Below, piece by piece: positions 582 through 18,004 of a stretch of DNA of 25,050 bases (its first letter is position 1; each line of letters opens with the position of its first letter). The stretch spans positions 1-25,050 of IMG/VR virus record IMGVR_UViG_2778261084_000006. One strand, 5' to 3'. A program made the translations under genes and the position numbers. The DNA comes from a virus. Lineage: Duplodnaviria > Heunggongvirae > Uroviricota > Caudoviricetes. The notes under the pieces are model-generated. The model saw only the letters and a list, made by a program, of their open reading frames with translations, did no database searches and was not told the DNA's origin.

Positions 582-1595
582 TTACTCTACTGTGGACACT
601 GTGTGGACACTCTCGGCCTCAGTACCACCTCTTAGCGGATTAAGAGAAATGGCGTCCTGAAGGTACTCTGGCGCAAAATGAGCGTAAACCATAGTTTGCT
701 CAATCCGCGTGTGACCTAGTATCCGTTGTAGCGTGATAATACTTCCTCCATTAATCATGAAATGAGTGGCAAAGCTGTGCCTTAGTGCATGTGTGGCTTG
801 CCCCATTGGCAAATCCGGTTTTATTGCTTTCATTGTTCGTCTGAAGCGAGGGTAATCAGCATCAGGGAATAAAAAACCTCGTTTGTTATCCGCGATCATT
901 TTGGCAACAGCCTCTGAGATCGGGACGGTGCGTGGTTTGTTTGTTTTCGTTTTAACAAACGTGACGCGGTTATGGATGATATTTTCTGCTTTCAAACGAG
1001 CTGCTTCTCCCCAACGTGCTCCAGTACTCAGGCAAAGAATCGCAATCTTTTTGTTGTCGCCGTCAAGAGCAGCAAGCAGTAAGGCAATTTCTTCCTGCGT
1101 GAGATAGCCTGTGTCTGGTTTTTCCTCCTTAAGCCTTTTTGTCCCTCTGATAGGGTGCTCACCAAAGAATAACTCCGCTTCAATCAGGGCTGTAAACATG
1201 CCGCTAATACATGTTAAATCACGATTGATACTCGAAGGTTTAATACCCTGACTTCTTCGGGTGGCGCAGTACTGGCTGATAAGCGATTTCGTAATTTGAA
1301 ATGCGCATGGGTCATTCGTTATTTTTGTGAAGATTTCAATTTTTCCAAGATTAGATTTCCCATGCTCTTCGTGTTTACCCTTTAAATCCCACCAGATCTG
1401 TGTCAGCTCCGACAGACGTCGCTTGTCTGTTGGTTTTGATAGCCATTCTTTATTGTGGTGGTTGTACAACGTGTATTTCTCGAAAGCGACAGCTTCGCTT
1501 TTCTTATCAAACTTCCTACGGATGCGTTTTCCATTACGTCCAGTAGGGCGGATGTCCACTTCATATCGACCATCATCGAGTTTTTTGATTGCCAT
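582..1595 (-). CDS. int: tyrosine integrase (P2 Int-like, 337 aa)
   Basis: starts MAIKKLDDGRYEVDIRPTG; C-terminal catalytic signature ARWGE / HALRHSFAT / MVYAHF (R-H-R-Y recombinase); sits next to the att core as in P2. Confidence 0.95.
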   Translation of the reverse strand: MAIKKLDDGRYEVDIRPTGRNGKRIRRKFDKKSEAVAFEKYTLYNHHNKEWLSKPTDKRRLSELTQIWWDLKGKHEEHGKSNLGKIEIFTKITNDPCAFQITKSLISQYCATRRSQGIKPSSINRDLTCISGMFTALIEAELFFGEHPIRGTKRLKEEKPDTGYLTQEEIALLLAALDGDNKKIAILCLSTGARWGEAARLKAENIIHNRVTFVKTKTNKPRTVPISEAVAKMIADNKRGFLFPDADYPRFRRTMKAIKPDLPMGQATHALRHSFATHFMINGGSIITLQRILGHTRIEQTMVYAHFAPEYLQDAISLNPLRGGTEAESVHTVSTVE

Positions 1596-3892: not shown

Positions 3893-4164
3893 GTATTCGT
3901 ATTGAAATTGGCGAACGTTATGTCGTTACCAGTGACAGCTTTCAGTTTATTCTCCACGAGAAAAAGAGAGCGGAAAGCGGTAAAAACGCCGGTCAGGAAT
4001 GGCTGGCGGTGGTTGGTTATTACCCGAAATTAAGCCAGCTCGTTTCCGGCCTGATGCATCACGATATTCTGACCGGAAGCGCAAAATCTTTTGCCGATTT
4101 AAACGTGCAGGTTGAGCAACTCAGCAGGCGTTGTTCAGAGGCTTTTGGCTCATATGGACGTTAA
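3889..4164 (+). CDS. small early-operon hypothetical protein (P2 orf83-like position)
   Basis: ATGA overlap with upstream stop; ggagaacgg RBS; 3' end overlaps the A start. Confidence 0.5.
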   Translation: MSIRIEIGERYVVTSDSFQFILHEKKRAESGKNAGQEWLAVVGYYPKLSQLVSGLMHHDILTGSAKSFADLNVQVEQLSRRCSEAFGSYGR

Positions 4165-6439
4165 AGCCTCCGGGCGTTTTGTCCCTCCGTCAGCATTTGC
4201 CGCAGGCACCGGTAAGACGTTTACCGGTGCTTATGCATGGAACGCGCCACGCGAGGCTGTCGGGCGCGAAAGACCCCTTACACGTGACGAGATGCGTCAG
4301 GTGCAAGGTGTTTTATCCACGATAAATCGCCTGCCTTATTTTTTGCGCTCGCTGTTTACTTCACGCTATGACTACATCCGGCGCAATAAAAGCCCGGTGC
4401 ACGGGTTTTATTTCCTCACATCCACTTTTCAGCGTCGTTTATGGCCGCGCATTGAGCGTGTGAATCAGCGCCATGAAATGAACACCGACGCGTCGTTGCT
4501 GTTTCTGGCAGAGCGTGACCATTATGCGCGCCTGCCGGGAATGAATGACAAGGAGCTGAAAAGGTTTGCCGCCCGTATCTCATCGCAGCTTTTCATGATG
4601 TATGAGGAACTCTGCGATGCCTGGGTGGATGCGCATGGCGAAAAAGAATCGCTGTTTACGGATGAGGCGCAGGCGTATCTGTATGGTCATGTTGCTGGCG
4701 CTGCACGTGCTTTCAATATTTCCCCGCTTTACTGGAAAAAATACCGTAAAGGACAGATGACCACGAGGCAGGCATATTCTGCCATTGCCCGTCTGTTTAA
4801 CGATGAGTGGTGGACTCATCAGCTTAAAGGCCAGCGTATGCGCTGGCATGAGGCGTTATTGATAGCTGTCGGGGAGGTCAATAAAGACCGTTCTCCTTAT
4901 GCCAGTAAACATGCCATTCGGGATGTGCGTGCGCGCCGTCAGGCAAATCTGGAGTTTCTTAAATCGTGTGACCTTGAAAACAGGGAAACCGGCGAACGCA
5001 TCGACCTTATCAGTAAGGTGATGGGCAGTATTTCTAATCCTGAAATTCGCCGGATGGAGCTGATGAACACCATTGCCGGTATTGAGCGTTACGCCGCCGC
5101 AGAGGGTGATGTGGGGATGTTTATCACGCTGACCGCGCCGTCAAAGTATCACCCGACACGTCAGGTCGGAAAAGGCGAAAGTAAAACCGTCCAGCTTAAT
5201 CACGGCTGGAATGATGAGGCATTTAATCCGAAGGATGCGCAGCGTTATCTCTGCCGTATCTGGAGCCTGATGCGCACGGCATTCAAGGATAATGATTTAC
5301 AGGTCTACGGTTTGCGAGTCGTCGAGCCACACCACGACGGAACGCCGCACTGGCATATGATGCTTTTTTGTAATCCACGCCAGCGTAACCAGATTATCGA
5401 AATCATGCGTCGCTACGCGCTCAAAGAGGATGGCGACGAAAGAGGAGCTGCGCGAAACCGTTTTCAGGCAAAACACCTTAACCGGGGCGGTGCTGCGGGA
5501 TATATCGCGAAATACATTTCAAAAAACATCGACGGCTATGCACTGGATGGTCAGCTCGATAACGATACCGGCAGGCCGCTGAAAGACACCGCCGCGGCTG
5601 TTACCGCATGGGCGTCAACGTGGCGCATCCCGCAATTTAAAACGGTTGGCCTGCCGACAATGGGGGCTTACCGTGAACTACGCAAATTGCCGCGCGGCGT
5701 CAGCATTGCTGATGAGTTTGACGAGCGCGTCGAGGCTGCACGCGCCGCCGCAGACAGTGGCGATTTTGCGTTGTATATCAGCGCGCAGGGTGGGGCAAAT
5801 GTCCCGCGCGATTGTCAGACTGTCAGAGTCGCCCGTAGCCCGTCGGATGACGTTAACGAGTACGAGGAAGAAGTCGAGAGAGTGGTCGGCATTTACGCGC
5901 CGCATCTCGGCGCGCGTCATATTCATATCACCAGAACGACGGACTGGCGCATTGTGCCGAAAGTTCCGGTCGTTGAGCCTTTGACTTTAAAAAGCGGCAT
6001 CGCCGCGCCTCGGAGTCCTGTCAATAACTGTGGAAAGCTCACCGGTGGTGATACTTCGTTACCGGCTCCCACACCTTCTGAGCACGCCGCAGCAGTGCTT
6101 AATCTGGTTGATGACGGTGTTATTGAATGGAATGAACCGGAGGTCGTGAGGGCGCTCAGGGGCGCATTAAAACACGACCTGCGAACGCCAAACCGTCAGC
6201 AAAGAAACGGAAGCCCGTTAAAACCACATGAAATTGCACCATCGGCCAGACTGACCCGGTCGGAAAGAATGCAAATTACCCGTATCCGCGTTGACCTTGC
6301 TCAGAACGGTATCAGGCCACAGCGATGGGAGCTTGAGGCGCTGGCGCGGGGAGCGACCATAAATTATGGCGGGAAAAAATTCACGTATCCGGTCACTGAT
6401 GAGTGGCCGGGATTCTCAACAGTAATGGAGTGGACATAA
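4154..6439 (+). CDS. A: rolling-circle replication initiator gpA (HUH endonuclease), 761 aa
   Basis: HUH-type motif HHDGTPHWHMMLF and tandem-tyrosine motif AGYIAKYISKNIDGY; first ATG at 4154 (MDVKASG...) gives 761 aa; track ORF starts at TTG 4112. Confidence 0.9.
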   Translation: MDVKASGRFVPPSAFAAGTGKTFTGAYAWNAPREAVGRERPLTRDEMRQVQGVLSTINRLPYFLRSLFTSRYDYIRRNKSPVHGFYFLTSTFQRRLWPRIERVNQRHEMNTDASLLFLAERDHYARLPGMNDKELKRFAARISSQLFMMYEELCDAWVDAHGEKESLFTDEAQAYLYGHVAGAARAFNISPLYWKKYRKGQMTTRQAYSAIARLFNDEWWTHQLKGQRMRWHEALLIAVGEVNKDRSPYASKHAIRDVRARRQANLEFLKSCDLENRETGERIDLISKVMGSISNPEIRRMELMNTIAGIERYAAAEGDVGMFITLTAPSKYHPTRQVGKGESKTVQLNHGWNDEAFNPKDAQRYLCRIWSLMRTAFKDNDLQVYGLRVVEPHHDGTPHWHMMLFCNPRQRNQIIEIMRRYALKEDGDERGAARNRFQAKHLNRGGAAGYIAKYISKNIDGYALDGQLDNDTGRPLKDTAAAVTAWASTWRIPQFKTVGLPTMGAYRELRKLPRGVSIADEFDERVEAARAAADSGDFALYISAQGGANVPRDCQTVRVARSPSDDVNEYEEEVERVVGIYAPHLGARHIHITRTTDWRIVPKVPVVEPLTLKSGIAAPRSPVNNCGKLTGGDTSLPAPTPSEHAAAVLNLVDDGVIEWNEPEVVRALRGALKHDLRTPNRQQRNGSPLKPHEIAPSARLTRSERMQITRIRVDLAQNGIRPQRWELEALARGATINYGGKKFTYPVTDEWPGFSTVMEWT

Positions 6440-6592: not shown

Positions 6593-8431
6593 ATGAGCGA
6601 GTTTGATGTTTTTTCTATTTCAGTTGATGATTTTAAAAAAAGTGAATACGCCAGTATATTATCATCGCCAAGAAGTTATTCTCATTTTGATATGGAGTCT
6701 TATTTTGTTCAGTTGTTGTCATCTTACAAGCTAAAAAACGATGTAAGTTCTTGGCGGCTTTGCTATTTATTACGTGCGTTGTTTAATTTTAAATTTTCTA
6801 GGTCTGGTGATATTATCGGTTTTGAGCCAAAAATCATTCTCTATCCTGAGAGGGGCTATAGGCCTTCAGATTATAAGGAGAGTTTTTCAACAATATTAAC
6901 TTGTATTAAAGAAAACTCCGATAATCCTTATATTATATCTAGGGTGTGTGATGTTTTATGGATAAATAACCGTAAGGATATAGACTCTGCCAATAAAGCA
7001 ATAGAGTCATATTCTCTAATGGTTAATGATGCTTGCGATACTTTAATAGAAAAACAAGAGTCAGGTGATATCCATATTTTTGATGTTGTTGACTGCTTGG
7101 ATAGAGGTATCGCAATATCGCGCATGCTTATTGGCAGGAAAAAACAACTACAAGGGGGGATAGTTGATTCGACATTAAGGTTATATCATGTATTAATAGA
7201 CTCTGGTATATTCACCGGTGTATTAAGAGTTTCTGAAATTCTTTATAAGAATAATTTATTGTGTCCCTTGCAATTGGCTGAGAATGCAGAAAAGATAGCT
7301 GATGAGCATTGTGGAGCGTCTTATTTTGATGCAGTGAAAAAATTGTTTTATTTTGCGTCTGAATTATATGTTAAAAACGATATGGAAGAGCAAGGAAGAC
7401 GGTGCAGAATTAAAGCGTCAGAAATAACATTGGCTCAATTTGAACAGTCTTCATCTTCAATATTGAAGGCTCATTGGTTAAGAGTTGCTCTTGGCGAATT
7501 TAGAGCAATTGGTGGAATGAATGAAGAAATTAAAAAGATTAGAGAGGAATTGAATTCTATTCGAGATCAAATTAATGATGAAATGCACTTCTTTGCAATA
7601 CCAATGGATCTTAGTGATGTTATCGCTCAGAAAGAGCATGTTTATAATCAATTGGATTTCTCAAGGGTAATTAAAACTTTAATTGCTAGATTTAAGATTG
7701 TAAGTGCCAGTGAAATTATGGAAAGAGCTCGTTCCGATGCTAAAAAACATTTTTTTCTTAATATGAGTGAAACGGTTGTTTATGATGATAGAGGGCGCGT
7801 TGTAGCAAGTCGTTCACCTTTGGATCCTGCGGGGGATATAAGTTTAAATGATGCTTGTGCAAATTATTTAAGAACTAGTAACATTGAGCATCAGGTCTAT
7901 GTTTGTGGTGAGTTTGAAGTCGTTAGGCAAAGTGTGTTGGCTAGGTATTCATTAAATGAAAATACATTTGACCCAATCTCACAACAAAGTGCATTTGTTC
8001 CACCTGGGTATGCAGAAATATTTTCTTTGGGGTTTTATAAGCTTTGGCAGGGAGATTATGTGTCTGCCTGTTATTTGTTATTGCCGCAATTGGAGAATTC
8101 AATTAGATGGATTTTAGAATTAAGAAGAAAAGAAACAACGAAAATAGATGTGTCGCTTTTTGAGGAGGCTACTAGCCTATCTCAAATGCTTGCAAATTAT
8201 AGGAGTGAAATGGAAGGTGTTTTTGATAGTGATCATGTATTGACTATGGATTTATTGTTCAATATGAAAGGTGGTGCTGCAATTAGACACACGATGGCTC
8301 ATGGCAGGTATACTGTAAATCATTGTTATCAACCAACTTCAGTTTTTGCCTGTGTCTTTATCTTTTATTTAACTTGTTTGCCTTTATTTAGTGTATGGGA
8401 AGATAAAGTTGAACCTTATCTGGCTGATTAA
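6593..8431 (+). CDS. cargo protein of unknown function, 612 aa, in the A-to-cos variable locus; possible HEPN-like motif and C-terminal hydrophobic anchor
   Basis: long ORF in visibly AT-rich DNA with aaggtgagg RBS; no Walker A motif (so not an Old-type ATPase); GGAAIRHTMAHG (Rx4H) near C-terminus followed by hydrophobic SVFACVFIFYLTCLPLFSVW. Confidence 0.7.
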   Translation: MSEFDVFSISVDDFKKSEYASILSSPRSYSHFDMESYFVQLLSSYKLKNDVSSWRLCYLLRALFNFKFSRSGDIIGFEPKIILYPERGYRPSDYKESFSTILTCIKENSDNPYIISRVCDVLWINNRKDIDSANKAIESYSLMVNDACDTLIEKQESGDIHIFDVVDCLDRGIAISRMLIGRKKQLQGGIVDSTLRLYHVLIDSGIFTGVLRVSEILYKNNLLCPLQLAENAEKIADEHCGASYFDAVKKLFYFASELYVKNDMEEQGRRCRIKASEITLAQFEQSSSSILKAHWLRVALGEFRAIGGMNEEIKKIREELNSIRDQINDEMHFFAIPMDLSDVIAQKEHVYNQLDFSRVIKTLIARFKIVSASEIMERARSDAKKHFFLNMSETVVYDDRGRVVASRSPLDPAGDISLNDACANYLRTSNIEHQVYVCGEFEVVRQSVLARYSLNENTFDPISQQSAFVPPGYAEIFSLGFYKLWQGDYVSACYLLLPQLENSIRWILELRRKETTKIDVSLFEEATSLSQMLANYRSEMEGVFDSDHVLTMDLLFNMKGGAAIRHTMAHGRYTVNHCYQPTSVFACVFIFYLTCLPLFSVWEDKVEPYLAD

Positions 8432-8592
8432 TGGAAGTTGATTTAGGTATTTTGGCATTTATCTTTCTGCGTGCAATATGTGCATGGTTTTGCATGTGCC
8501 GGAGTTGCATGTTCCGGCCGTGCGTCCGCCAGGACGGGCGTGGCTCAAAAGCGGTATTGCACTTGCATTAAAACCGCCCCACGAAGCGGGCG

Positions 8593-8611
8593 GGCGAGGC
8601 GGGGAAAGCAC
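8593..8611 (+). other. putative cos cohesive-end sequence (ggcgaggcggggaaagcac)
   Basis: 19-mer matches my recollection of the P2 cohesive end; lies between the A-side cargo and Q as expected for the P2 genome end; not verifiable here. Confidence 0.55.
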
Positions 8612-8744
8612 TGCGCGCAATGATGTCAGTTTGAGGGCATCAGGCATGGGGACACTACACAGTTTCATTTTTGTTATTAATTGTTTATCATATAAGTGTT
8701 TGTTTTTTGAACGGCATGTCGTGTGCTATATGGAGTGAATAGAA

Positions 8745-9014
8745 GTGACTAAATTTGACAAAAAAAAAGCAATTTCTATTTTAACAGAAAAAAAAGCCTT
8801 GCTCCCATGTCATCGGTGTGGAAATTCAAAGTTCATCATTTTGGATGGCATATCATCACTTCCATTAATGGAAAATATGGAAATGATTGGTAGTATTGTT
8901 GTTGGCGGAATGAATGCTCCTGTATTACATGTGGCATGTGAGAATTGTGGTGCAGTTACTTCACATTTGCTTGGGGCACTTGGTTTAATGCCGGAGATTA
9001 AATCAAATGACTAA
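8745..9014 (+). CDS. small zinc-ribbon protein (CxxC...CxxC), hypothetical cargo
   Basis: 89 aa from GTG start with ggagtg RBS; CHRCGN ... CENCGA cysteine pairs; last 8 nt overlap the next ORF. Confidence 0.6.
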   Translation: MTKFDKKKAISILTEKKALLPCHRCGNSKFIILDGISSLPLMENMEMIGSIVVGGMNAPVLHVACENCGAVTSHLLGALGLMPEIKSND

Positions 9015-9477
9015 GGATGTTTTTTTCTCTGATGAAGGTAGTGGTAAAAAAAGTGCTGTCTTGCATGGGGCGCAGGTTACAATAAACCCTGATTCGCAAT
9101 TTACAAAAAAGATAATTAGGCAGACTGAGGTTGATGTTATTGTGATAAGTGATGATAAACTTCATATAATTTTGACGAATTGCTTATCTAAAATTGCATC
9201 ATTAAACCGCTGGTCAACACCTTTGGGTATTTTAATTACCTTGGCGGTAACTATGTTAACCACAAATTTTAAGAATTTTATTCTTCAGGATTCTGTGTGG
9301 GAGGCTGTTTTCTGGATGCTTATTTTTTTTAATATTATCTGGTTGGTGAAAAACATTCCATATAGACACTTATTTTTAACTGTTTGTCATTCTATAGGGG
9401 TTCGTAAAGATAAAAAAAGAATTAGTGATGTATACCACATTATAGATATAATTAAACAAGGTGATACACGCTTTTGA
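9007..9477 (+). CDS. small membrane protein with two predicted TM helices, hypothetical cargo
   Basis: 156 aa; hydrophobic segments WSTPLGILITLAVTMLTTNF and WEAVFWMLIFFNIIWLV; start overlaps upstream stop (translational coupling); AT-rich. Confidence 0.6.
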   Translation: MTKDVFFSDEGSGKKSAVLHGAQVTINPDSQFTKKIIRQTEVDVIVISDDKLHIILTNCLSKIASLNRWSTPLGILITLAVTMLTTNFKNFILQDSVWEAVFWMLIFFNIIWLVKNIPYRHLFLTVCHSIGVRKDKKRISDVYHIIDIIKQGDTRF

Positions 9478-9510
9478 TTTAATATCAATATTTGATTGAG
9501 TATATAATAA

Positions 9511-9533
9511 AGCCGCCTGAGTTTATGGCGGCT
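9511..9533. terminator. bidirectional hairpin between convergent cargo gene and Q
   Basis: stem agccgcc / ggcggct with 9-nt loop, flanked by A/T-rich runs on both sides. Confidence 0.45.
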
Positions 9534-9553
9534 AATATAGGGTGTGTGCTAAG

Positions 9554-10573
9554 TCATAATGTGTATTTGTTGAATCTAATTATTTCTTCGCCAACCCATT
9601 CATTAAGGGCAATAAAGCGAGATTGAATAGGAGTAAGCTCATTGCGGACAAAGACCTTTGCCACTTTCTCAATATCACCCAGTGACCCGACGTTCTCCGG
9701 CTTGCCGCCCATCAACTGAAAGGGGATGCGGTGCGCGTCCAGCAGGTCAGCGGCGCTGGCTTTTTTGATATTAAAAAAATCGTCCTTCGTCGCCACTTCA
9801 CTGAGGGGGATAATTTTAATGCCGTCGGCTTTCCCCTGTGGGGCATAGAGAAACAGGTTTTTAAAGTTGTTGCGGCCTTTCGACTTGACCATGTTTTCGC
9901 GAAGCATTTCGATATCGTTGCGATCCTGCACGGCATCAGTGACGTACATGATGTATCCGGCATGAGCGCCGTTTTCGTAATACTTGCGGCGGAACAGCGT
10001 GGCCGACTCATTCAGCCAGGCAGAGTTAAGGGCGCTGAGATATTCCGGCAGGCCGTACAGCTCCTGATTAATATCGGGCTCCAGCAGGTGAAACACGGAG
10101 CCGGGCGCGAAGGCTGTCGGCTCGTTGAAGGACGGCACCCACCAGTAAACATCCTCTTCCACGCCACGACGGGTATATTTTGCCGGTGAGGTTTCCAGTC
10201 TGATGACCTTACCGGTGGTGCTGTAACGCTTTTCCAGAAACGCATTACCGAACACCAGAAAATCCAGCACAAAGCGGCTGAAATCCTGCTGGGAAAGCCA
10301 CGGATGCGGAATAAACGTTGAAGCCAGAATATTGCGTTTAACGTAAATCGGCGAGCTGTGATGCACGGCAGCACGCAGGCTTTTTGCCAGACCGGTAAAG
10401 CTGACCGGTGGCTCATACCATCTGCCGTTACTGATGCACTCGACGTAATCCAGAATGTCACGGCGGTCGAGAACCGGCACCGGCTCGCCAAAGGTGAATG
10501 CCTCCATTTTCGGGGCGCTGGCGGTCATTTTTTTTGCCGCTGGTCGCGGTGTTTTCCCTTTTTTCTTGCTCAT
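9554..10573 (-). CDS. Q: portal protein gpQ (P2-like)
   Basis: 339 aa, MSKKKGKTPRPAAKK...; Q start overlaps P stop (ATGA) as in P2. Confidence 0.9.
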   Translation of the reverse strand: MSKKKGKTPRPAAKKMTASAPKMEAFTFGEPVPVLDRRDILDYVECISNGRWYEPPVSFTGLAKSLRAAVHHSSPIYVKRNILASTFIPHPWLSQQDFSRFVLDFLVFGNAFLEKRYSTTGKVIRLETSPAKYTRRGVEEDVYWWVPSFNEPTAFAPGSVFHLLEPDINQELYGLPEYLSALNSAWLNESATLFRRKYYENGAHAGYIMYVTDAVQDRNDIEMLRENMVKSKGRNNFKNLFLYAPQGKADGIKIIPLSEVATKDDFFNIKKASAADLLDAHRIPFQLMGGKPENVGSLGDIEKVAKVFVRNELTPIQSRFIALNEWVGEEIIRFNKYTL

Positions 10574-11250
10574 CAGTAAAACTCCAGAATGGTGGATGTC
10601 AGCGGAGTGCTGATACCCGCGGTGAGTGGCTCATTTAACAGGGCGTGCATGGTCGCCCAGGCGAGGTCGGCGTGGCTGGCTTCCTCGCTGCGGCTGGCCT
10701 CATAGGTGGCGCTGCGTCCGCTGCTGGTCATGGTCTTGCGGATAGCCATAAACGAGCTGGTGATGTCGGTGGCGCTGACGTCATATTCCAGACAGCCACG
10801 GCGGATGACGTCTTTTGCCTTGAGCACCATTGCGGTTTTCATTTCCGGCGTGTAGCGGATATCGCGCGCGGCGGGATAGAACGAGCGCACGAGCTGGAAC
10901 ACGCCGACACCGAGGCCGGTGGCATCAATACCGATGTATTCAACGTTATATTTTTCGGTGAGTTTGCGGATGGATTCCGCCTGGGTGGCAAAGTCCATGC
11001 CTTTCCACTGGTGACGCTCAAGTATTCTGAATTTGCCACCGGCCACCACCGGCGGTGCCAGTACCACGCATCCGGCGCTGTCGCCACGGTGTGACGGGTC
11101 GTAACCAATCCATACCGGACGTGAGCCGAACGGATTGGCGGCAAACGGCGCATAGTCTTCCCATTCTTCCAGCGTGTCGACCATGCAGCGTTGCAGCTCC
11201 TCGACCCGAATTTTGCTACCACCATGACTAATGCGCTTGCGGGTAAGCAA
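10573..11250 (-). pseudogene. P: terminase large subunit gpP, 5'-truncated (C-terminal ~225-237 codons only)
   Basis: C-terminal nuclease-domain-like sequence (WIGYDPSHRGDSAGCVVLAPP...YIGIDATGLGVGVF); frame closed by an in-frame stop at 11287-11289; full P2 gpP is ~590 aa; upstream DNA is tail-fibre coding on the other strand. Confidence 0.8.
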
Positions 11251-12318
11251 CCGAAAGATGCCACTTTGACGGCGCTGGCGGGGCTTGCTACTGCGGCAGA
11301 CAGGTTTCCGTATTTTACGGGGAATGATGTTGCCAGCCTGGCGACCCTGACAAAAGTCGGGCGGGATATTCTGGCTAAATCGACCGTTGCCGCCGTTATC
11401 GAATATCTCGGTTTACAGGAAACGGTAAACCGAGCCGGGAACGCCGTGCAAAAAAATGGCGATACCTTGTCCGGTGGACTTACTTTTGAAAACGACTCAA
11501 TCCTTGCCTGGATTCGAAATACTGACTGGGCGAAGATTGGATTTAAAAATGATGCCGATGGTGACACTGATTCATACATGTGGTTTGAAACGGGGGATAA
11601 CGGCAATGAATATTTCAAATGGAGAAGTCGCCAGAGCACCACAACAAAAGACCTGATGAATCTTAAATGGGATGCTCTGTATGTTCTTGTTAAAGCCCTT
11701 TTCAGCAGTGAAGTAAAAATATCTACAGTCAATGCGCTGAGGATATTTAATTCATCTTTTGGTGCTATTTTTCGCCGTTCTGAAGAAAACCTGTATATCA
11801 TTCCTACACGAGAAAATGAGGGTGAAAATGGAGATATTGGGCCATTAAGGCCATTCGGCATCAACTTAAGAACAGGAGTTGTGTCTGTTGGTAATGGTGC
11901 CAGGATTGATGGCGGGCTGGCACTTGGCACGAATAACGCGTTGGGTGGGAACTCTATTGTTCTTGGTGATAACGACACCGGATTTAAACAAAATGGCGAT
12001 GGTAATCTGGATGTTTATGCTAATAACGTCCATGTTATGCGCTTTGTTTCCGGAAGCATTCAAAGTAATAAGACCATAAATATTACGGGGCGTGTTAATC
12101 CCTCGGATTACGGTAACTTTGATTCCCGCTATGTGAGAGATATCAGACTTGGCACACGTGTTGTCCAGACCATGCAGAAAGGGGTGATGTATGAGAAAGC
12201 AGGGCACGTAATTACCGGGCTTGGTATTGTCGGTGAAGTCGATGGTGATGACCCCGCAGTATTCAGGCCAATACAAAAATACATCAATGGCACATGGTAT
12301 AACGTCGCACAGGTGTAA
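11191..12318 (+). pseudogene. H: tail fibre gpH-like, 5'-truncated (C-terminal ~365 aa)
   Basis: conserved tail-fibre block NALAGKQPKDATLTALAGLATAADRFPYFTGNDVASLATL begins at ~11230; ORF opens at TTG 11191 inside P-derived DNA; followed by tail fibre assembly gene. Confidence 0.75.
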
Positions 12319-12321
12319 TTT

Positions 12322-12849
12322 ATGCAGCATTTAAAAAATATTACTGCGGGTAATCCAAAAACTGTTGCCCAATATCAACTGACAAAAAATTTTGATGTTA
12401 TCTGGTTATGGTCCGAAGAGGGAAAAAACTGGTATGAGGAAGTAAGTAATTTTCAGGAAGACACGATAAAGATTGTTTACGACGAGAATAATATAATTGT
12501 CGGCATCACCAGAGATGCTTCAACGCTTAACCCTGAAGGTTTCAGCGTTGTCGAGGTTCCTGATATTACCTCCAACCGACGTGCTGATGACTCAGGTAAA
12601 TGGATGTTTAAGGATGGTGCCGTGATTAAGCGGATTTATACGGCAGATGAACAGGAGCAACAGGCAGAATCACAAAAGGCAGCTTTACTTTCCGAAGCTG
12701 AATCCGTGATTTTGCCGCTGGAACGCGCTGTCAGGCTGAATATGGCGACGGATGAGGAACGCAGCCGACTGGAAGCATGGGAACGCTACAGCGTTCTGGT
12801 CAGTCGTGTGGATCCTGCAAATCCCGAATGGCCGGAAATGCCGCAATAA
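12322..12849 (+). CDS. G: tail fibre assembly chaperone gpG
   Basis: 175 aa, [41 protein letters not shown] ... [12 protein letters not shown]; matches my recollection of P2 gpG. Confidence 0.9.
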
Positions 12850-13117
12850 GTTGTATGATCTCTGGTGTGAGCTTACATATCTATAGCACAGAGTAAAGCC
12901 TAATCTGACAGTCCGCTATGTGCCAAAAGCGGAAGTTGCTTCGTGCTGGGATAGGATGATTATGGAAATGTGTTCATGAGCATTTCATGACGCATGAATT
13001 GAATTATAATTCAATTAGATATACTATATTTATAATTAAAAATAGCATTGTAATATTTAAAAGATATATGTTATTGATACGCATATTTATTCTTTTAAAT
13101 TCACAAGTGAGGTTTGT

Positions 13118-14140
13118 ATGCGTAGAGTAGTAATTGACACAAATATTTTATATGCTCTGACTGGAGTTTCTGTGAATGAAAAGGTGGTAACTTCGAGTCT
13201 TAATGATTTTAAGCTATCCATAACCACCCCATCAATTATAGAGATGGTTGTTAAATTTCAATATGATTTAGATACAATAAAGAAATGCCTCGAACCTATC
13301 ATAAATGAAAGCATTGAGCTCATTAGCATAGGTCACGCCCCAATTCCGAATGAATATCTTTACATGTTACACTTCGCGAAGGAAATAGAAGAAGTTACAG
13401 ATCTCATTGATGAGATTAAAACGTTAAAAATCTCCAGGGAAGCTGAATTCTACAGGTTTATACTTATATTAGTTGTTTCTGGGTTATTTGAGGTTATTAG
13501 AGAGGATGGCTACAAATTTTGTGATGAGGCACGAAATCAAAAACAATTAATGATGGTGCGTTCTTTATTTGAGTCTAACATGGATCTAATATTAGATTAC
13601 TTTAAAGATGAAATACGTAATGGATATATGAATGGAAATGAACAACAAGCTGCCCTAGATGCTTTCCAAAGTAAAATAATCATGTTATTAAATATTTTTC
13701 ATATAAATTATCATATGATTAAAACCGATACATTTCCTTATAATGAATCCTCGGTGAACCTTGAGAACTTAATCACTAGTTTAGATAGTGATTGCTTTAA
13801 CATAAAACTTAAAAAATACATCGATAATCCTTTATTTTTTGCATCTAAAGCAAAATACAATTCGATAATAAATAATTATATGGCAGAAATGAGAAATGGA
13901 ATGCTAGATTTGAGTGGACTCACTGAGAAGTCTATGGATTTCCTATTGAATAAGATTGACAGTGCTTATAAAAATGGCAGGAAGTTGCGAAAAAATGACA
14001 TATTTGATTTCCTGATTGTTATTTCCTTAAACATGCCAGACACTTTGATTGTTACACTTGATAAAGGTTTCCTGAAAGATCTTGAACATCTTGATTATAA
14101 TAGCTACCAACTTTGTCAAAAGTTAGGCTATATAAATTGA
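13118..14140 (+). CDS. PIN-like domain protein (putative nuclease), 340 aa, cargo in G-to-FI variable locus
   Basis: N-terminus MRRVVIDTNILYAL (PIN first strand with Asp), downstream PSIIEMVVKF (second acidic), C-terminal LIVTLDKGF (PIN TxD..F-like); AT-rich; agtgagg RBS. Confidence 0.6.
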   Translation: MRRVVIDTNILYALTGVSVNEKVVTSSLNDFKLSITTPSIIEMVVKFQYDLDTIKKCLEPIINESIELISIGHAPIPNEYLYMLHFAKEIEEVTDLIDEIKTLKISREAEFYRFILILVVSGLFEVIREDGYKFCDEARNQKQLMMVRSLFESNMDLILDYFKDEIRNGYMNGNEQQAALDAFQSKIIMLLNIFHINYHMIKTDTFPYNESSVNLENLITSLDSDCFNIKLKKYIDNPLFFASKAKYNSIINNYMAEMRNGMLDLSGLTEKSMDFLLNKIDSAYKNGRKLRKNDIFDFLIVISLNMPDTLIVTLDKGFLKDLEHLDYNSYQLCQKLGYIN

Positions 14141-14348
14141 AACTTTCAGTGAATGTAATGAAACCATTACACCAACTTTTAGATGACTCTGGATAAGACA
14201 ACAGTAAGAATAATTGCAGAGGTCCTCTTTTCGCTCATAGCAGCCCTCGCGGCGCTTCAGACGGTCTGCTTCGTGCTGGAGCGGACCTAAGTGCCTAGCT
14301 ATGAGTGGCACGACAGAATACAATGTAAAATAAAATACCCTTGCAGGG

Positions 14349-15407
14349 ATGAAAATAATGATTGAACCGTTTAGTTGGGAAAATTGGAAGCAAGTATACC
14401 TACATAAAAAAAACAAGAAGCGAGTTTCTCTTGAACGATACGGATTGAGAAGTCTTCACTCTGTCGCCAGCTTGGACTTAATCGTATCAAAAGTTCATGA
14501 ATTATATTTAAAAAAACAGCAAGAAGTGGCTGTTAATGCTAAATCTGTTTGGATAGATGGAACTCCTCAGGCTAAATTCAAGAGTGTCGATGGCTCTGTC
14601 TTAAACTGCGAATTGGCGGATCTTCTGTTTATTATTCACGAGATGGATAATAAAAACAAAACAATAAATTTTCGAGCTACCTTATTACAAGGTAAGTGTT
14701 CTGAGAAACATAATTTACTCCCAAATGGACCTTCGACAGATAAAGAAAGAAAACTGCTCGAATCTATCGATCGCAATGAGTATTTGTACTTATACCCAGG
14801 CACGAGGGCATACGGAGAAAAAATAGGGAAATATAAATTAGGCGGGGAGAACATCGGATTAGCGGACTGTGCGAAATATTTAATTATGCCTAAATATGAA
14901 AGATGGAAATATAAAACACCTGATAATATATCTCCTTACGTAATTGGCTGGCCAAACAAAATATCATCCAATTATTTAACCAATGTTGTAAATTACATGG
15001 ATGTAATTCTTGAAAAAATGATTTCATCAAAGACCATGGGAAAGGAAATAAATTTAACGATGCAAAACCATATAGACAGGCAATGTGAGTGGTCAAAAAT
15101 GATTTATGATTTGTTAAATAGCTACTTACCGATAACAATGAAGGGCTATGACTCCCAACGAAGAGTATATAAGTCAAGTTTATTTGACGATAATATGTCT
15201 GCTACATTAGCATTGATTAATAATGGTCACTGTGATTTCATAAGTAAACATGCTTTTAAAGACTTGCCTAAAGGTAAGGGTAGGTTTTTATATCAACATA
15301 CATTAAATATTCTTGGGGATTACTCTAGCCCCGTTATTTCAACAATATATATCCAAATCAAACAAAAGGAAGGGGAAATATATCGTCAATCTCTTGGGGT
15401 TGATTGA
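14349..15407 (+). CDS. hypothetical protein, 352 aa, cargo
   Basis: long AT-rich ORF on same strand as the PIN-like gene; no motif recognised; alternative start at 14358. Confidence 0.6.
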   Translation: MKIMIEPFSWENWKQVYLHKKNKKRVSLERYGLRSLHSVASLDLIVSKVHELYLKKQQEVAVNAKSVWIDGTPQAKFKSVDGSVLNCELADLLFIIHEMDNKNKTINFRATLLQGKCSEKHNLLPNGPSTDKERKLLESIDRNEYLYLYPGTRAYGEKIGKYKLGGENIGLADCAKYLIMPKYERWKYKTPDNISPYVIGWPNKISSNYLTNVVNYMDVILEKMISSKTMGKEINLTMQNHIDRQCEWSKMIYDLLNSYLPITMKGYDSQRRVYKSSLFDDNMSATLALINNGHCDFISKHAFKDLPKGKGRFLYQHTLNILGDYSSPVISTIYIQIKQKEGEIYRQSLGVD

Positions 15408-15655
15408 GTTAGGAGTAACTGTTTGCTAAAGACTATATTTCCACTCTTGACGAGAATAATAAGATGCTCGGTTTTATTAGCAGAGTTATTTTAAAATTCA
15501 ATTCAGAAAGATATGATTGTGTTTAGGCTTAGGTCCACTCCTCGCTCATAGCAGACCTGATAATGTTCTGTCGATCAGTGGGTTCAAGAAAAGGACTATT
15601 AATCATCAACTATTAGTTGACCATTATCGTCATCGAAAATATTAGGTAAAAAATT

Positions 15656-15694
15656 GAGCCACAGACAAAAATATATTGAATTAACCTGTGGCTC
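15656..15694 (-). terminator. hairpin downstream of the GNAT gene (stem gagccacag / ctgtggctc, 21-nt loop)
   Basis: perfect 9-bp stem; on the minus strand it is followed by a T-run (complement of aaaaaatt); long loop lowers confidence. Confidence 0.4.
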
Positions 15695-15701
15695 TTTAAC
15701 A

Positions 15702-16352
15702 TTAGAGGTACATGCTCATCGGTATGCCTTGCCCTGCCTCAAGAGCAGCTTTACCTATCCATGTATCATGAACAACAAATCCATATTTTTCAAAATGCTT
15801 CTTGAGTGGTATGTCCGCAGCGGTAAGATATATTTCCTCAATGCCTTCTTGCTTACAATACTGTATGGCGTTTTCCAGAAGTTCGGCGAAAAGCCCAAGG
15901 CCATGATATTCTTGGAAGTCATATTTTTGAGGGATTACTGGTTCGTAGGGATTTACAAGCATTACATCAACGATCATTAAAATATTAGGGTAGGAATGTG
16001 CTAATATGAGCTCTACCGTCTCTTTATCATCCAGTTCTGGATCCTGAACCTCTCCATGTACATATAAAATATCTTTAATAACATTTTCATTTATATGTTT
16101 TGACACTTTTTTATATAGTAGCGGGTTATTAGTTTGGCATTCCCTTCCAAATATAAACTTATCTTGGTTAGGATTTGCATTGCAGAAACGGTCCCACGCT
16201 GCAATACCTATCTGAAAAAGATCATTTGGTTTATTTCTTACAAGGAATTCTATTCGCTCAATTCCATATTCTATGAATTTTACTGGATTAGTAAATTTTT
16301 TTGTTATTGATTCAGAAGGAAGTATAGCGTTTAATCTTCTCTGGTTTTCCAT
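15702..16352 (-). CDS. GNAT-family N-acetyltransferase, 216 aa, cargo
   Basis: acetyl-CoA-binding motif A region EYHGLGLFAELLENAIQYCKQEGIEEIYLTAAD and C-terminal KKHFEKYGF typical of GNAT fold; ATG with aggtg RBS; convergent with the 352-aa ORF. Confidence 0.7.
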   Translation of the reverse strand: MENQRRLNAILPSESITKKFTNPVKFIEYGIERIEFLVRNKPNDLFQIGIAAWDRFCNANPNQDKFIFGRECQTNNPLLYKKVSKHINENVIKDILYVHGEVQDPELDDKETVELILAHSYPNILMIVDVMLVNPYEPVIPQKYDFQEYHGLGLFAELLENAIQYCKQEGIEEIYLTAADIPLKKHFEKYGFVVHDTWIGKAALEAGQGIPMSMYL

Positions 16353-16693
16353 AATTCACACCTTGTAATTACCTCATGAAAATAATCTATATGTTGCACC
16401 AAGAAAGATAACATTGCCATAATTTATTAACTGGCCTATGACGCACATCAAGAATGGTCGTATCGGAATAAGGAGTAGCGGAAGATTATACCAGCAGATT
16501 TGCTACAAATATTAATAGTAGTTCTGGTGATGCTATGGGCTAGCATCACGAAAATGATGAATCATGTGTTATGCGGACACGATACTTGATCATAACGACA
16601 GCTTCTCGCTCAAAGCAGACTGTCAGATTTGATAGCGTTTTGGCTATGTAAATTGTCAGTCGGGAAATAAGTGAGTACAAATCATGACAGGCG

Positions 16694-16720
16694 GGCGGAT
16701 TGTCCGCCTTTTCTTTATCT
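16694..16720 (+). terminator. intrinsic-terminator-like hairpin plus T-tract upstream of FI
   Basis: ggcgga-ttg-tccgcc followed by ttttctttatctgttgtttc. Confidence 0.4.
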
Positions 16721-16813
16721 GTTGTTTCATCCACTGACCAGCCAGGTCAAATAGCGTCTCATGCTCTGCACAACAGAAAATACCACTCACCCATTAACCA
16801 CGGAGTTAGACGG

Positions 16814-18004
16814 ATGAGTGACTATCATCACGGCGTGCAGGTGCTGGAGATTAACGACGGCACCCGCGTCATTTCCACCGTATCCACTGCCATTGTCGGC
16901 ATGGTCTGCACGGCCAGCGATGCAGATGCGGAAACCTTCCCCCTCAATAAACCGGTGCTGATTACCAATGTGCAGAGCGCAATTGCAAAGGCCGGTAAAA
17001 AAGGCACGCTGGCGGCGTCGTTACAGGCCATCGCTGACCAGTCAAAACCGGTCACCGTTGTTGTGCGCGTGGAAGACGGCACCGGCGACGACGAAGAAAC
17101 GAAACTTGCGCAGACCGTTTCCAATATCATCGGCACCACCGACGAAAACGGTCAGTACACCGGACTGAAAGCCCTGCTGGCGGCGGAGTCGGTAACCGGT
17201 GTTAAACCGCGTATTCTCGGCGTGCCGGGACTGGATACCAAAGAGGTGGCTGTTGCACTGGCATCAGTCTGTCAGAAGCTGCGCGCTTTCGGGTATATCA
17301 GCGCATGGGGCTGTAAAACCATTTCTGAGGTGAAAGCCTACCGCCAGAATTTCAGCCAGCGTGAGCTGATGGTCATCTGGCCGGATTTCCTCGCATGGGA
17401 TACGGTCACCAGTACCACCGCCACCGCGTATGCCACTGCCCGTGCGCTGGGGCTGCGCGCTAAAATCGACCAGGAGCAGGGCTGGCATAAAACGCTGTCC
17501 AACGTTGGGGTGAACGGTGTTACCGGCATCAGTGCATCTGTATTCTGGGATTTGCAGGAGTCCGGCACCGATGCTGACCTGCTTAACGAGTCAGGCGTCA
17601 CTACGCTGATTCGCCGCGACGGTTTCCGCTTCTGGGGTAACCGTACCTGCTCTGATGACCCGCTGTTCCTCTTTGAAAACTACACCCGCACCGCGCAGGT
17701 GCTGGCCGACACGATGGCTGAGGCGCACATGTGGGCGGTGGACAAGCCCATCACCGCAACGCTGATTCGCGACATCGTTGACGGTATCAATGCCAAATTC
17801 CGTGAGCTGAAAACAAACGGCTATATCGTGGATGCGACCTGCTGGTTCAGCGAAGAATCCAACGATGCGGAAACCCTCAAGGCCGGAAAACTGTATATCG
17901 ACTACGACTATACACCGGTGCCTCCTCTCGAAAACCTGACCCTGCGCCAGCGTATTACCGATAAATACCTGGCAAATCTGGTCACCTCGGTTAACAGCAA
18001 TTAA
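16814..18004 (+). CDS. FI: tail sheath protein gpFI
   Basis: MSDYHHGVQVLEINDGTRVISTVSTAIVGMVCTASDADAETFPLNKPVLITNVQ ...; 396 aa from ATG 16814 (track ORF starts upstream at 16700). Confidence 0.95.
   Translation: MSDYHHGVQVLEINDGTRVISTVSTAIVGMVCTASDADAETFPLNKPVLITNVQSAIAKAGKKGTLAASLQAIADQSKPVTVVVRVEDGTGDDEETKLAQTVSNIIGTTDENGQYTGLKALLAAESVTGVKPRILGVPGLDTKEVAVALASVCQKLRAFGYISAWGCKTISEVKAYRQNFSQRELMVIWPDFLAWDTVTSTTATAYATARALGLRAKIDQEQGWHKTLSNVGVNGVTGISASVFWDLQESGTDADLLNESGVTTLIRRDGFRFWGNRTCSDDPLFLFENYTRTAQVLADTMAEAHMWAVDKPITATLIRDIVDGINAKFRELKTNGYIVDATCWFSEESNDAETLKAGKLYIDYDYTPVPPLENLTLRQRITDKYLANLVTSVNSN

Follow-up and report, generated by a model that had tools for sequence, protein, structure and literature searches.

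Several described systems pair a soluble protein with a compact membrane protein. RexA/RexB, retron Ec48 with its two-transmembrane (2-TM) effector and CBASS with 2-TM effectors are two-component abortive-infection systems with a transmembrane effector. CptA (YgfX) and CptB (SdhE) of Escherichia coli, a toxin-antitoxin (TA) system with a membrane toxin, consist of an 88-aa soluble protein encoded upstream of a 135-aa 2-TM protein. Class II holins, of about 65-95 aa, have two TM helices with both termini in the cytoplasm (N-in/C-in), and membrane morons such as HK97 gp15, as well as the integron-cassette protein 'Deva', are reported to block genome entry. Here we describe a two-gene cassette of comparable layout beside the cohesive-end site (cos) of an E. 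coli P2-like prophage, found in positions 1 to 25,050 of IMG/VR record IMGVR_UViG_2778261084_000006, a stretch of 25,050 nucleotides that we call the window. The cassette encodes, on the plus strand, an 89-aa cytosolic zinc-ribbon protein (ORF1, 8745-9014) and a 156-aa protein predicted to form a hairpin in the inner membrane (ORF2, 9007-9477). We tentatively suggest that the pair is accessory cargo of the immunity type.

The pair is like RexA/RexB, Ec48 and CBASS in joining a soluble partner to a small multi-TM protein, in prophages or defence islands. Unlike in those systems, the soluble partner is a zinc ribbon of only about 89 aa that lacks any domain for enzymatic activity or nucleotide signalling, the N-domain of ORF2 is cytosolic and conserved, and no homology was found in the comparisons made, which covered the PADLOC models and the Ec48 effector. 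CptA/CptB is nearly identical in gene sizes and shares the gene order, the 2-TM toxin architecture and the small bicistronic operon. Pfam and NCBIfam scans gave no indication of homology to it, the pair not having been compared directly with CptA/CptB; moreover SdhE is a helical flavinylation factor whereas ORF1 is a zinc ribbon, and CptA/CptB is core chromosomal whereas the pair is mobile cargo. The inner-membrane hairpin predicted for ORF2, with two helices and an N-in/C-in orientation, recalls class II holins and pinholins, but at 156 aa ORF2 is about double their length, carries a conserved cytosolic N-domain of about 65 aa, lies outside the lysis cassette and is also found on a plasmid and in chromosomal arrays. 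The P2 lysis genes are sited elsewhere, at 19669-21445 of locus L008, a related E. coli prophage. ORF1, for its part, resembles Lar (PF14354) in being a small phage-borne CxxC...CxxC zinc ribbon with weak profile similarity, but its C-terminal HxLGALGL motif and its obligatory membrane partner are not Lar features.

The initial annotation of this region, made from the sequence alone, had picked out two overlapping open reading frames in AT-rich DNA, one for a CxxC...CxxC protein of 89 aa and one for a two-helix protein of 156 aa, and their coordinates, 8-nt overlap and low GC content all hold. It had also suspected that the 19-mer GGCGAGGCGGGGAAAGCAC at 8593-8611 is cos. This 19-mer, which we take to be the cohesive-end sequence of P2, has exact matches in eight P2-like loci, including the phage P2 record KC618326, and it lies within a conserved cos core (8558-8618) that is invariant in the alignment of all P2-like loci compared and forms the left recombination boundary of the cassette. 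In a multiple alignment, homology with pair-less prophages ends 7 nt to the right of cos (8619) and returns at about 9634, within the portal gene Q, so that about 1.0 kb stands in place of about 0.25 kb. The distance from cos to the Q stop is 943 bp in the window against 170 bp in two pair-less relatives, an enlargement that the initial annotation had anticipated, and the GC content over 8600-9600 is 0.32-0.38 against 0.50-0.59 for the backbone. As a unit the cassette consists of an AT-rich leader of 126 bp on the plus strand (8619-8744), present in every pair-bearing E. coli locus, then ORF1 and ORF2, a GC-rich hairpin (AGCCGCC-N9-GGCGGCU, 9511-9533) between the convergent ORF2 and Q, and the 3' end of Q. 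The last 27 or so codons of Q (9554-9634, minus strand) are exchanged along with the cassette; their GC content is 33%, where pair-less Q has 51-54%, and the C-terminus that they specify has diverged. Megablast finds the whole 8400-9700 segment in 8 of 5,426 complete E. coli genomes and its flanks in 2,153; carriers of the pair make up about 0.5% of roughly 1,600 E. coli records with the same Q, and among deposited phage genomes the cassette segment was found in none. The segment 8619-9634 is thus mobile accessory cargo and not phage backbone, as had been proposed when it was called an insertion. The cassette is swapped among P2-like phages through recombination between the cos core and a point within Q.

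The same annotation called the insertion site unusual, which our comparison does not support; the site is less unusual than that. The gpA-gpQ interval beside cos was defined as a defence hotspot by Rousset et al. 2022 (PMC9122126), whose supplementary file 6 gives WP_001288417 + WP_087891114 + WP_023567683 as 'hypothetical + hypothetical + hypothetical'; the locus of the window is already catalogued there, but without characterisation. The pair at 8745-9477 sits where gpA-gpQ cargo sits, between A and Q and beside cos, and the content of the place varies, with the pair, retron Ec48, PD-T4-4 or nothing in syntenic prophages. We surveyed the slot with a composite query of the cos core and the Q 3' region, taking an evenly spaced sample of the ranking that comprised 45 Q-bearing records. 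The canonical empty spacing was present in 41, and three of the four exceptions hold cargo between cos and Q. Retron Ec48 occupies the slot in EC93 and MS14386, and the PD-T4-4 A+B pair does so in S21 (PADLOC E = 2e-112 and 1e-15). Both have been reported as validated anti-phage systems. The Q side of cos is therefore a recurrent cargo slot that is filled in a minority of prophages, and the setting fits defence or exclusion cargo, as had been supposed from the sequence. Retron Ec48 and PD-T4-4 share with the pair not only the slot but also the recombination points, the presence/absence polymorphism, the low GC content and the form of a small plus-strand operon; the pair has no sequence relation to either and is without a reverse transcriptase, non-coding RNA or ATPase. 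We rejected the idea of an Ec48-type retron: 8431-9554 holds no reverse transcriptase gene, and the ORF2 profile is unrelated to the Ec48 effector WP_000993280 (hhalign probability 0.3%).

The ends of Q follow the cargo. The GC content of the last 27 or so codons is 33% with the pair, 27% with retron Ec48, 42% with PD-T4-4 and 51-54% where the slot is empty. The differing Q ends converge at one point in the gene, which places the right recombination joint inside the portal gene. On the other side of cos, the window carries a 612-aa DUF7380 protein (6593-8431, plus strand; PADLOC candidate PDC-S39, E = 2e-68; phrog_5183), a separate candidate defence gene that is independent of the ORF1-ORF2 pair. 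This A-side cargo next to the pair is DUF7380/PDC-S39 in six genomes, HEPN in GF4 and SIR2, on the opposite strand, in SWHEFF_58, and the pair assorts independently of it. These observations refine the P2 hotspot model in three ways: cos splits the hotspot into two cargo slots that assort independently, the slot on the Q side is filled in a minority of prophages only, and the Q-side joint lies within Q, so that the last 27 or so portal codons move with each cargo type.

The two genes travel together well beyond P2-like prophages. An ORF1 homologue lies directly upstream of the ORF2 homologue, on the same strand, in 16 of 17 independent contexts that contain the latter, as judged by a start-agnostic HMM scan of fetched loci plus one pair from a later look-up. 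The description of a soluble zinc-ribbon protein overlapping a 2-TM protein and co-inherited with it thus extends from the window to at least 16 independent contexts, prophages among them. In the E. coli cos-Q slot the pair is found in the window and two further loci. Klebsiella P2-like prophages have it with the tail-completion gene S on one side and the spike gene V on the other, in the opposite orientation to the late operon (5739-6471 in L002-L005), Shewanella W3-18-1 in a P2/HP1-like prophage at the end adjoining smpB, Aeromonas in a lambdoid prophage, and Arthrobacter phage Shoya as genes 27/28. Outside phages it occurs directly after rep on a 4.6-kb Col(Ye4449) MOBP plasmid of Klebsiella, in chromosomal islands of Serratia and Proteus, in a small element with integrase and Rep_trans, on a contig next to HEPN_AbiU2, in an integron-like cassette array of Aliivibrio with HigBA and HEPN_RiboL-PSP, in a cassette-like array of Alcanivorax, and in an Alteromonas unit between two IS110 copies, next to a NERD-helicase as well as ParE, CcdAB and RelE cassettes. 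The remaining contexts are Weeksella (Bacteroidota), a metagenome-assembled genome (MAG) of an unclassified bacterium and a 3.7-kb contig binned to a Methanosarcinaceae MAG. Prophages, a Col plasmid, integron-like arrays, an IS110 unit and an integrase+Rep element as carriers make this cargo resemble defence or TA genes. Neighbours of the pair across these contexts also include a weak TIR-like match. In Shoya, gene 27 (3591-3899 of L039) has an annotated start that is too late (61 aa); the longer frame regains the first CxxC, RPCYRCG, and the extended gene is a full-length ORF1 homologue that shares 4 nt with gene 28, which encodes the homologue of ORF2.

In the window the two frames share 8 nt (ATGACTAA), with a GGAG 9 nt ahead of the ORF2 ATG. 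Most pairs with both ends determined overlap by 4-14 nt, within an overall range of 0-14 nt, and this arrangement suggests that translation of ORF1 and ORF2 is probably coupled. Among enterobacterial pairs with unsaturated dS, ORF1 has a dN/dS of 0.05-0.19 and ORF2 one of 0.11-0.27. When the window copy is compared with most of the others, synonymous positions have reached or nearly reached saturation, with protein identity still at 57-77%. ORF1 and ORF2 are real, co-inherited genes under purifying selection. The objection that they might lack conservation, raised along with the initial annotation, fails, as the pair is found across phyla with dN/dS of 0.05-0.27.

The pairing is not exclusive. 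Behind other ORF1 homologues comes a second family of small 2-TM proteins, with the motifs LDLxAGxLGKxFG ... GYxFGK (L030 477-1024, L036 3965-4502), a GNAT acetyltransferase (in two loci, for example L016 6001-6696) or a 299-aa soluble protein. One unpaired ORF2 relative lies on a viral contig next to a HicAB-like pair, and the gene ahead of it encodes an unrelated protein of 118 aa (L029 4630-5345). Partner swapping of this sort is typical of sensor/effector or antitoxin/toxin modules.

ORF1 has its paired cysteines at C22/C25 and C65/C68, within the motifs LPCHRCG ... CENCGAxTxHxLGALGL. Its GTG start is validated by homologues that start with ATG at the aligned position. A word-indexed search returns relatives at 43-76% identity, and an HMM search of 1.84 billion cluster representatives with the ORF1 profile gives 1,295 matches at E<=1e-3, 349 of them at E<=1e-10; the 1,295 members are clusters at 50% identity. 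Most of the best 150 matches are 80-120 aa long and cover almost the full profile length. A scan of genome contigs with a narrower ORF1 alignment gave 8 loci, and a scan of IMG/VR gave 4. The four cysteines and G69 do not vary in 67 diverse relatives, F30, P59 and H74 hardly vary, and the tail has the consensus HALGALGLL. In the AF2 model (pLDDT 78) a helix at the N-terminus is followed by a zinc ribbon of three strands, and the C-terminal tail is modelled with less confidence. Neither Pfam nor NCBIfam has a family that scores above threshold, no PADLOC family matches at E<=1, and fold searches found no structural neighbour of known role; against the PDB, the sole profile match is the RpoM zinc ribbon (E = 6e-4). 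We considered whether ORF1 belongs to Lar_restr_allev (PF14354) and rejected this, its score of 17.8 bits (E = 0.004) being below the gathering cutoff of 28.6 and the similarity generic to zinc ribbons. Matches to Lar_restr_allev below threshold recur in 16 of the 67 relatives (best E = 7.7e-4), and the Pfam scan of these 67 gave just sub-threshold generic zinc-ribbon and Lar matches.

The first 18 codons of ORF1 contain two A-tracts, A9 at 8761-8769 and A8 at 8790-8797. In E. coli TK3889 the first tract is A8 and not A9, which frameshifts ORF1 and leaves ORF2 intact; an error in sequencing the homopolymer would explain this as well as genuine slippage would. A database protein resembles a compensated double frameshift between the two tracts. 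Phase variation through these tracts was considered and set aside, as they are not conserved in homologues.

ORF2 is laid out as a cytosolic N-domain with the motif VIVISDDKLHIIL, two predicted TM segments (TM1 at residues 70-86, TM2 at 97-113) and a basic C-tail; the core motif of the family, NVKSDLIEITEDKLENILLKHL, stands immediately ahead of TM1. Close homologues at 57-65% identity are found in Serratia, Klebsiella and Proteus (word-indexed search), and a profile that includes two distant copies collects 298 proteins with a length of about 130 aa. In an alignment of 118 members, the residues shared by at least 96% include F32, I45, I47, D50, K51, L52, I55, L56, W69, P72, F88, W98, A100, F102, W112 and K150. 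Among 97 relatives with two segments, the median number of lysines plus arginines is 10 in the N-region (56 aa), 1 in the loop (15 aa) and 4 in the C-region (31 aa). Hydropathy and the positive-inside rule together support the prediction of an N-in/C-in hairpin. The AF2 model (pLDDT 52.7) is too poor for use. ORF2 matches PHROG 32870 (E = 1.7e-9), as do its homologues from Shewanella, Aeromonas and the Arthrobacter phage (E = 5e-13 to 2e-11), but this family is without annotation, and membership therefore gives zero functional information. No Pfam or NCBIfam family scores above threshold, and no PADLOC family (PADLOC-DB v2.0, 5,027 models) matches at E<=1. A precomputed Pfam accession, PF27874, is attached to two distant ORF2 relatives; neither the Pfam-A copy used nor the searchable literature contains it, and the family may already be defined in a recent release of Pfam, probably as a domain of unknown function.

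The leader 8619-8744 is present also where the upstream cargo sits on the opposite strand and is convergent, which suggests that the cassette has a promoter of its own. By eye, there is a weak candidate -10 element (TATCAT, 8686-8691), followed by a GGAG Shine-Dalgarno sequence at 8732-8735. At the other end, the fold of 9478-9560 has an energy of -23 kcal/mol (z = -3.4), and the hairpin at 9511-9533 is followed by a U-rich run on the Q strand. An analogous hairpin is present here in pair-less loci. We regard the hairpin as a likely terminator, clearer on the Q strand.

What might such a pair do? Our leading reading, to which we would give somewhat less than an even chance, is that the cassette is accessory cargo of the immunity type, with ORF2 acting as an inner-membrane effector under the control of ORF1 in phage exclusion or abortive infection. 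ORF2 would sit in the inner membrane as a hairpin with both termini, and the conserved N-domain of about 65 aa, in the cytoplasm, and coupled translation would supply the two proteins in a fixed ratio. ORF1 may bind ORF2 and gate it, as a sensor or as an antitoxin. We speculate that infection by another phage would lead ORF1 to free ORF2, which could then permeabilise or depolarise the membrane, or block DNA entry; the outcome would be membrane failure, and hence abortive infection, or an entry block, and the lysogen or other carrier would resist infecting phages. We use 'sensor' for ORF1 and 'effector' for ORF2 purely as role labels, not on the strength of homology, a structural match or an experiment. 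The cos-Q slot shared with retron Ec48 and PD-T4-4 speaks for this reading, and so do the patchy presence of the pair alongside three kinds of A-side cargo, its near-constant pairing, the types of carrier, the HEPN, NERD-helicase, TIR-like and TA neighbours, the exchange of partners, the purifying selection and the predicted topology.

A number of points weigh on the other side. The 5,027 PADLOC models gave no match for either protein, and Pfam and NCBIfam gave none above threshold; no structural neighbour of known role turned up, and the ORF2 model is too poor to use. A consensus scan finds no sigma-70 site in the leader 8619-8744, which leaves expression in a lysogen putative. Hotspot residence is not proof either, because activity was seen in only about a third of the cloned hotspot systems (Rousset et al., PMC9122126). 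A literature search by accession, by PF27874 and by keywords returned no characterisation of either protein and no anti-phage report, and the accessions of the pair are not in the DefensePredictor supplements. TK3889, with ORF1 frameshifted and ORF2 intact, disfavours ORF1 as an indispensable antitoxin, but the point falls if the frameshift is a homopolymer sequencing error, and it might also fall if coupling silences ORF2 too. Lastly, a TA or addiction module fits the data nearly as well, and the small plasmid and TA-rich arrays suit a pure addiction module equally well.

In that alternative, ORF2 is a membrane toxin and ORF1 its co-translated antitoxin, and the module stabilises its carrier with no dedicated anti-phage role. 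We consider it unlikely, but it is the explanation that survives best after our own. A bicistronic, overlapping pair of small proteins is the architecture expected of TA genes, and the carriers fit as well: the 4.6-kb mobilisable Col-type plasmid has the pair straight after rep, arrays rich in HigBA, ParE/Phd, CcdAB and RelE hold it, and it is kept in the window's own prophage, which is defective. Partner swapping, too, is reminiscent of TA networks. However, no known toxin or antitoxin family was matched above threshold in Pfam, NCBIfam or PADLOC, ORF1 is without a recognisable DNA-binding antitoxin domain, and TK3889 tolerates a frameshifted ORF1 together with an intact ORF2. The two ideas also overlap, since a TA pair can at the same time act in abortive infection.

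It is also conceivable, though less probable again, that the pair provides superinfection exclusion of a non-abortive kind, with the ORF2 hairpin blocking genome entry and ORF1 serving as an assembly or regulatory partner. In favour, ORF2 is a small membrane protein that prophage morons of more than one phage type encode, both in Gram-negative hosts and in Gram-positive ones. Of the phage-resistance genes in integron cassettes, about a third have TM helices, and one of them interferes with injection (10.1101/2024.07.02.601719). A simple injection block, however, would predict neither a strictly conserved cytosolic zinc-ribbon partner nor a large, conserved cytosolic N-domain, and small plasmids and TA arrays are less typical carriers of such genes.

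A role in the phage life cycle or in counter-defence, whether in regulating lysis like a holin, in aiding packaging near cos or in alleviating restriction like Lar, strikes us as very improbable. The predicted N-in/C-in 2-TM topology of ORF2 recalls class II holins, ORF1 has its weak Lar_restr_allev matches (E = 0.004), and the cassette begins 7 nt from cos. Yet the pair is missing from about 99.5% of the P2-like prophages of E. coli and is therefore not needed for packaging or lysis; it is found outside phages as well (on the plasmid, in integron-like arrays, in the IS-flanked unit and in chromosomal islands), the Klebsiella copy is antisense to the late genes, and the Lar score of 17.8 bits, below the cutoff of 28.6, reflects generic zinc-ribbon similarity. 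That the frames are spurious or decaying in AT-rich junk DNA is hardly credible: the missing functional annotation, the lack of a clear promoter and the homopolymer frameshift variants in databases would fit, but the pair is conserved in Enterobacteria, Bacteroidota and an Arthrobacter phage alike, with invariant cysteines and motifs and dN/dS of 0.05-0.27, which effectively refutes it.

If the pair is indeed accessory immunity cargo, one might go further and see in it the founding example of a widespread two-gene immune module of about 0.75 kb whose mechanism is unrelated to named systems. We regard this as possible but doubtful. Such a module would combine a zinc-ribbon trigger or gatekeeper with a holin-like hairpin, kill or seal the cell upon infection and draw on interchangeable membrane effectors; it would range over Proteobacteria, Bacteroidota, Desulfobacterota, actinophages and possibly archaea, in prophages, plasmids and integron cassettes. 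Small cargo in prophage hotspots that joins a soluble partner to a TM effector is already known, and the site is the published P2 hotspot. What is new is that both protein families are uncharacterised and, as far as sequence comparison goes, unrelated to any named defence or TA component tested. If active, the pair would be among the smallest two-gene anti-phage or abortive modules, with a sensor-like part that is just a zinc ribbon of about 89 aa, and this would raise the question of what so small a zinc ribbon can recognise. The breadth of the pair, in phages of Gram-negative and Gram-positive hosts, on plasmids and in integron-like arrays, makes it an efficient experimental target.

The rest of the window is that of a P2-like prophage. 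An integrase gene (582-1595, minus strand) is followed by early genes, replication gene A lies at 4112-6439, and the flanking backbone to the right of the cassette begins with Q (9554-10573, minus strand), which encodes a 339-aa portal protein (Pfam Phage_portal; PGAP annotation in ECC-1470). An 86-aa frame that spans cos (8478-8738) has zero family matches and is most likely spurious. A second AT-rich island, at 13000-16400 with a GC content of about 0.29-0.38, lies between the tail-fibre assembly gene G (12322-12849) and the sheath gene FI (16700-18004), which is the Z/fun slot of P2. Its frames of 340, 352 and 216 aa (the last on the minus strand) have zero PADLOC matches, and the 216-aa frame has a weak GNAT match only. 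The prophage of the window is defective. Within 10573-12318, terminase gene P is cut to its C-terminal 225 aa, with Terminase_6C only, and is fused directly, at about 11200, to a tail-fibre gene, with the capsid, lysis, tail-completion and baseplate genes deleted. This P/tail-fibre junction is absent from every complete E. coli genome in the collection. An intact version of the same prophage is present in ECC-1470, where the S/V moron slot, corresponding to the place of the pair in the Klebsiella prophages, holds a 246-aa hypothetical protein, presumably at the orf30 position of P2.

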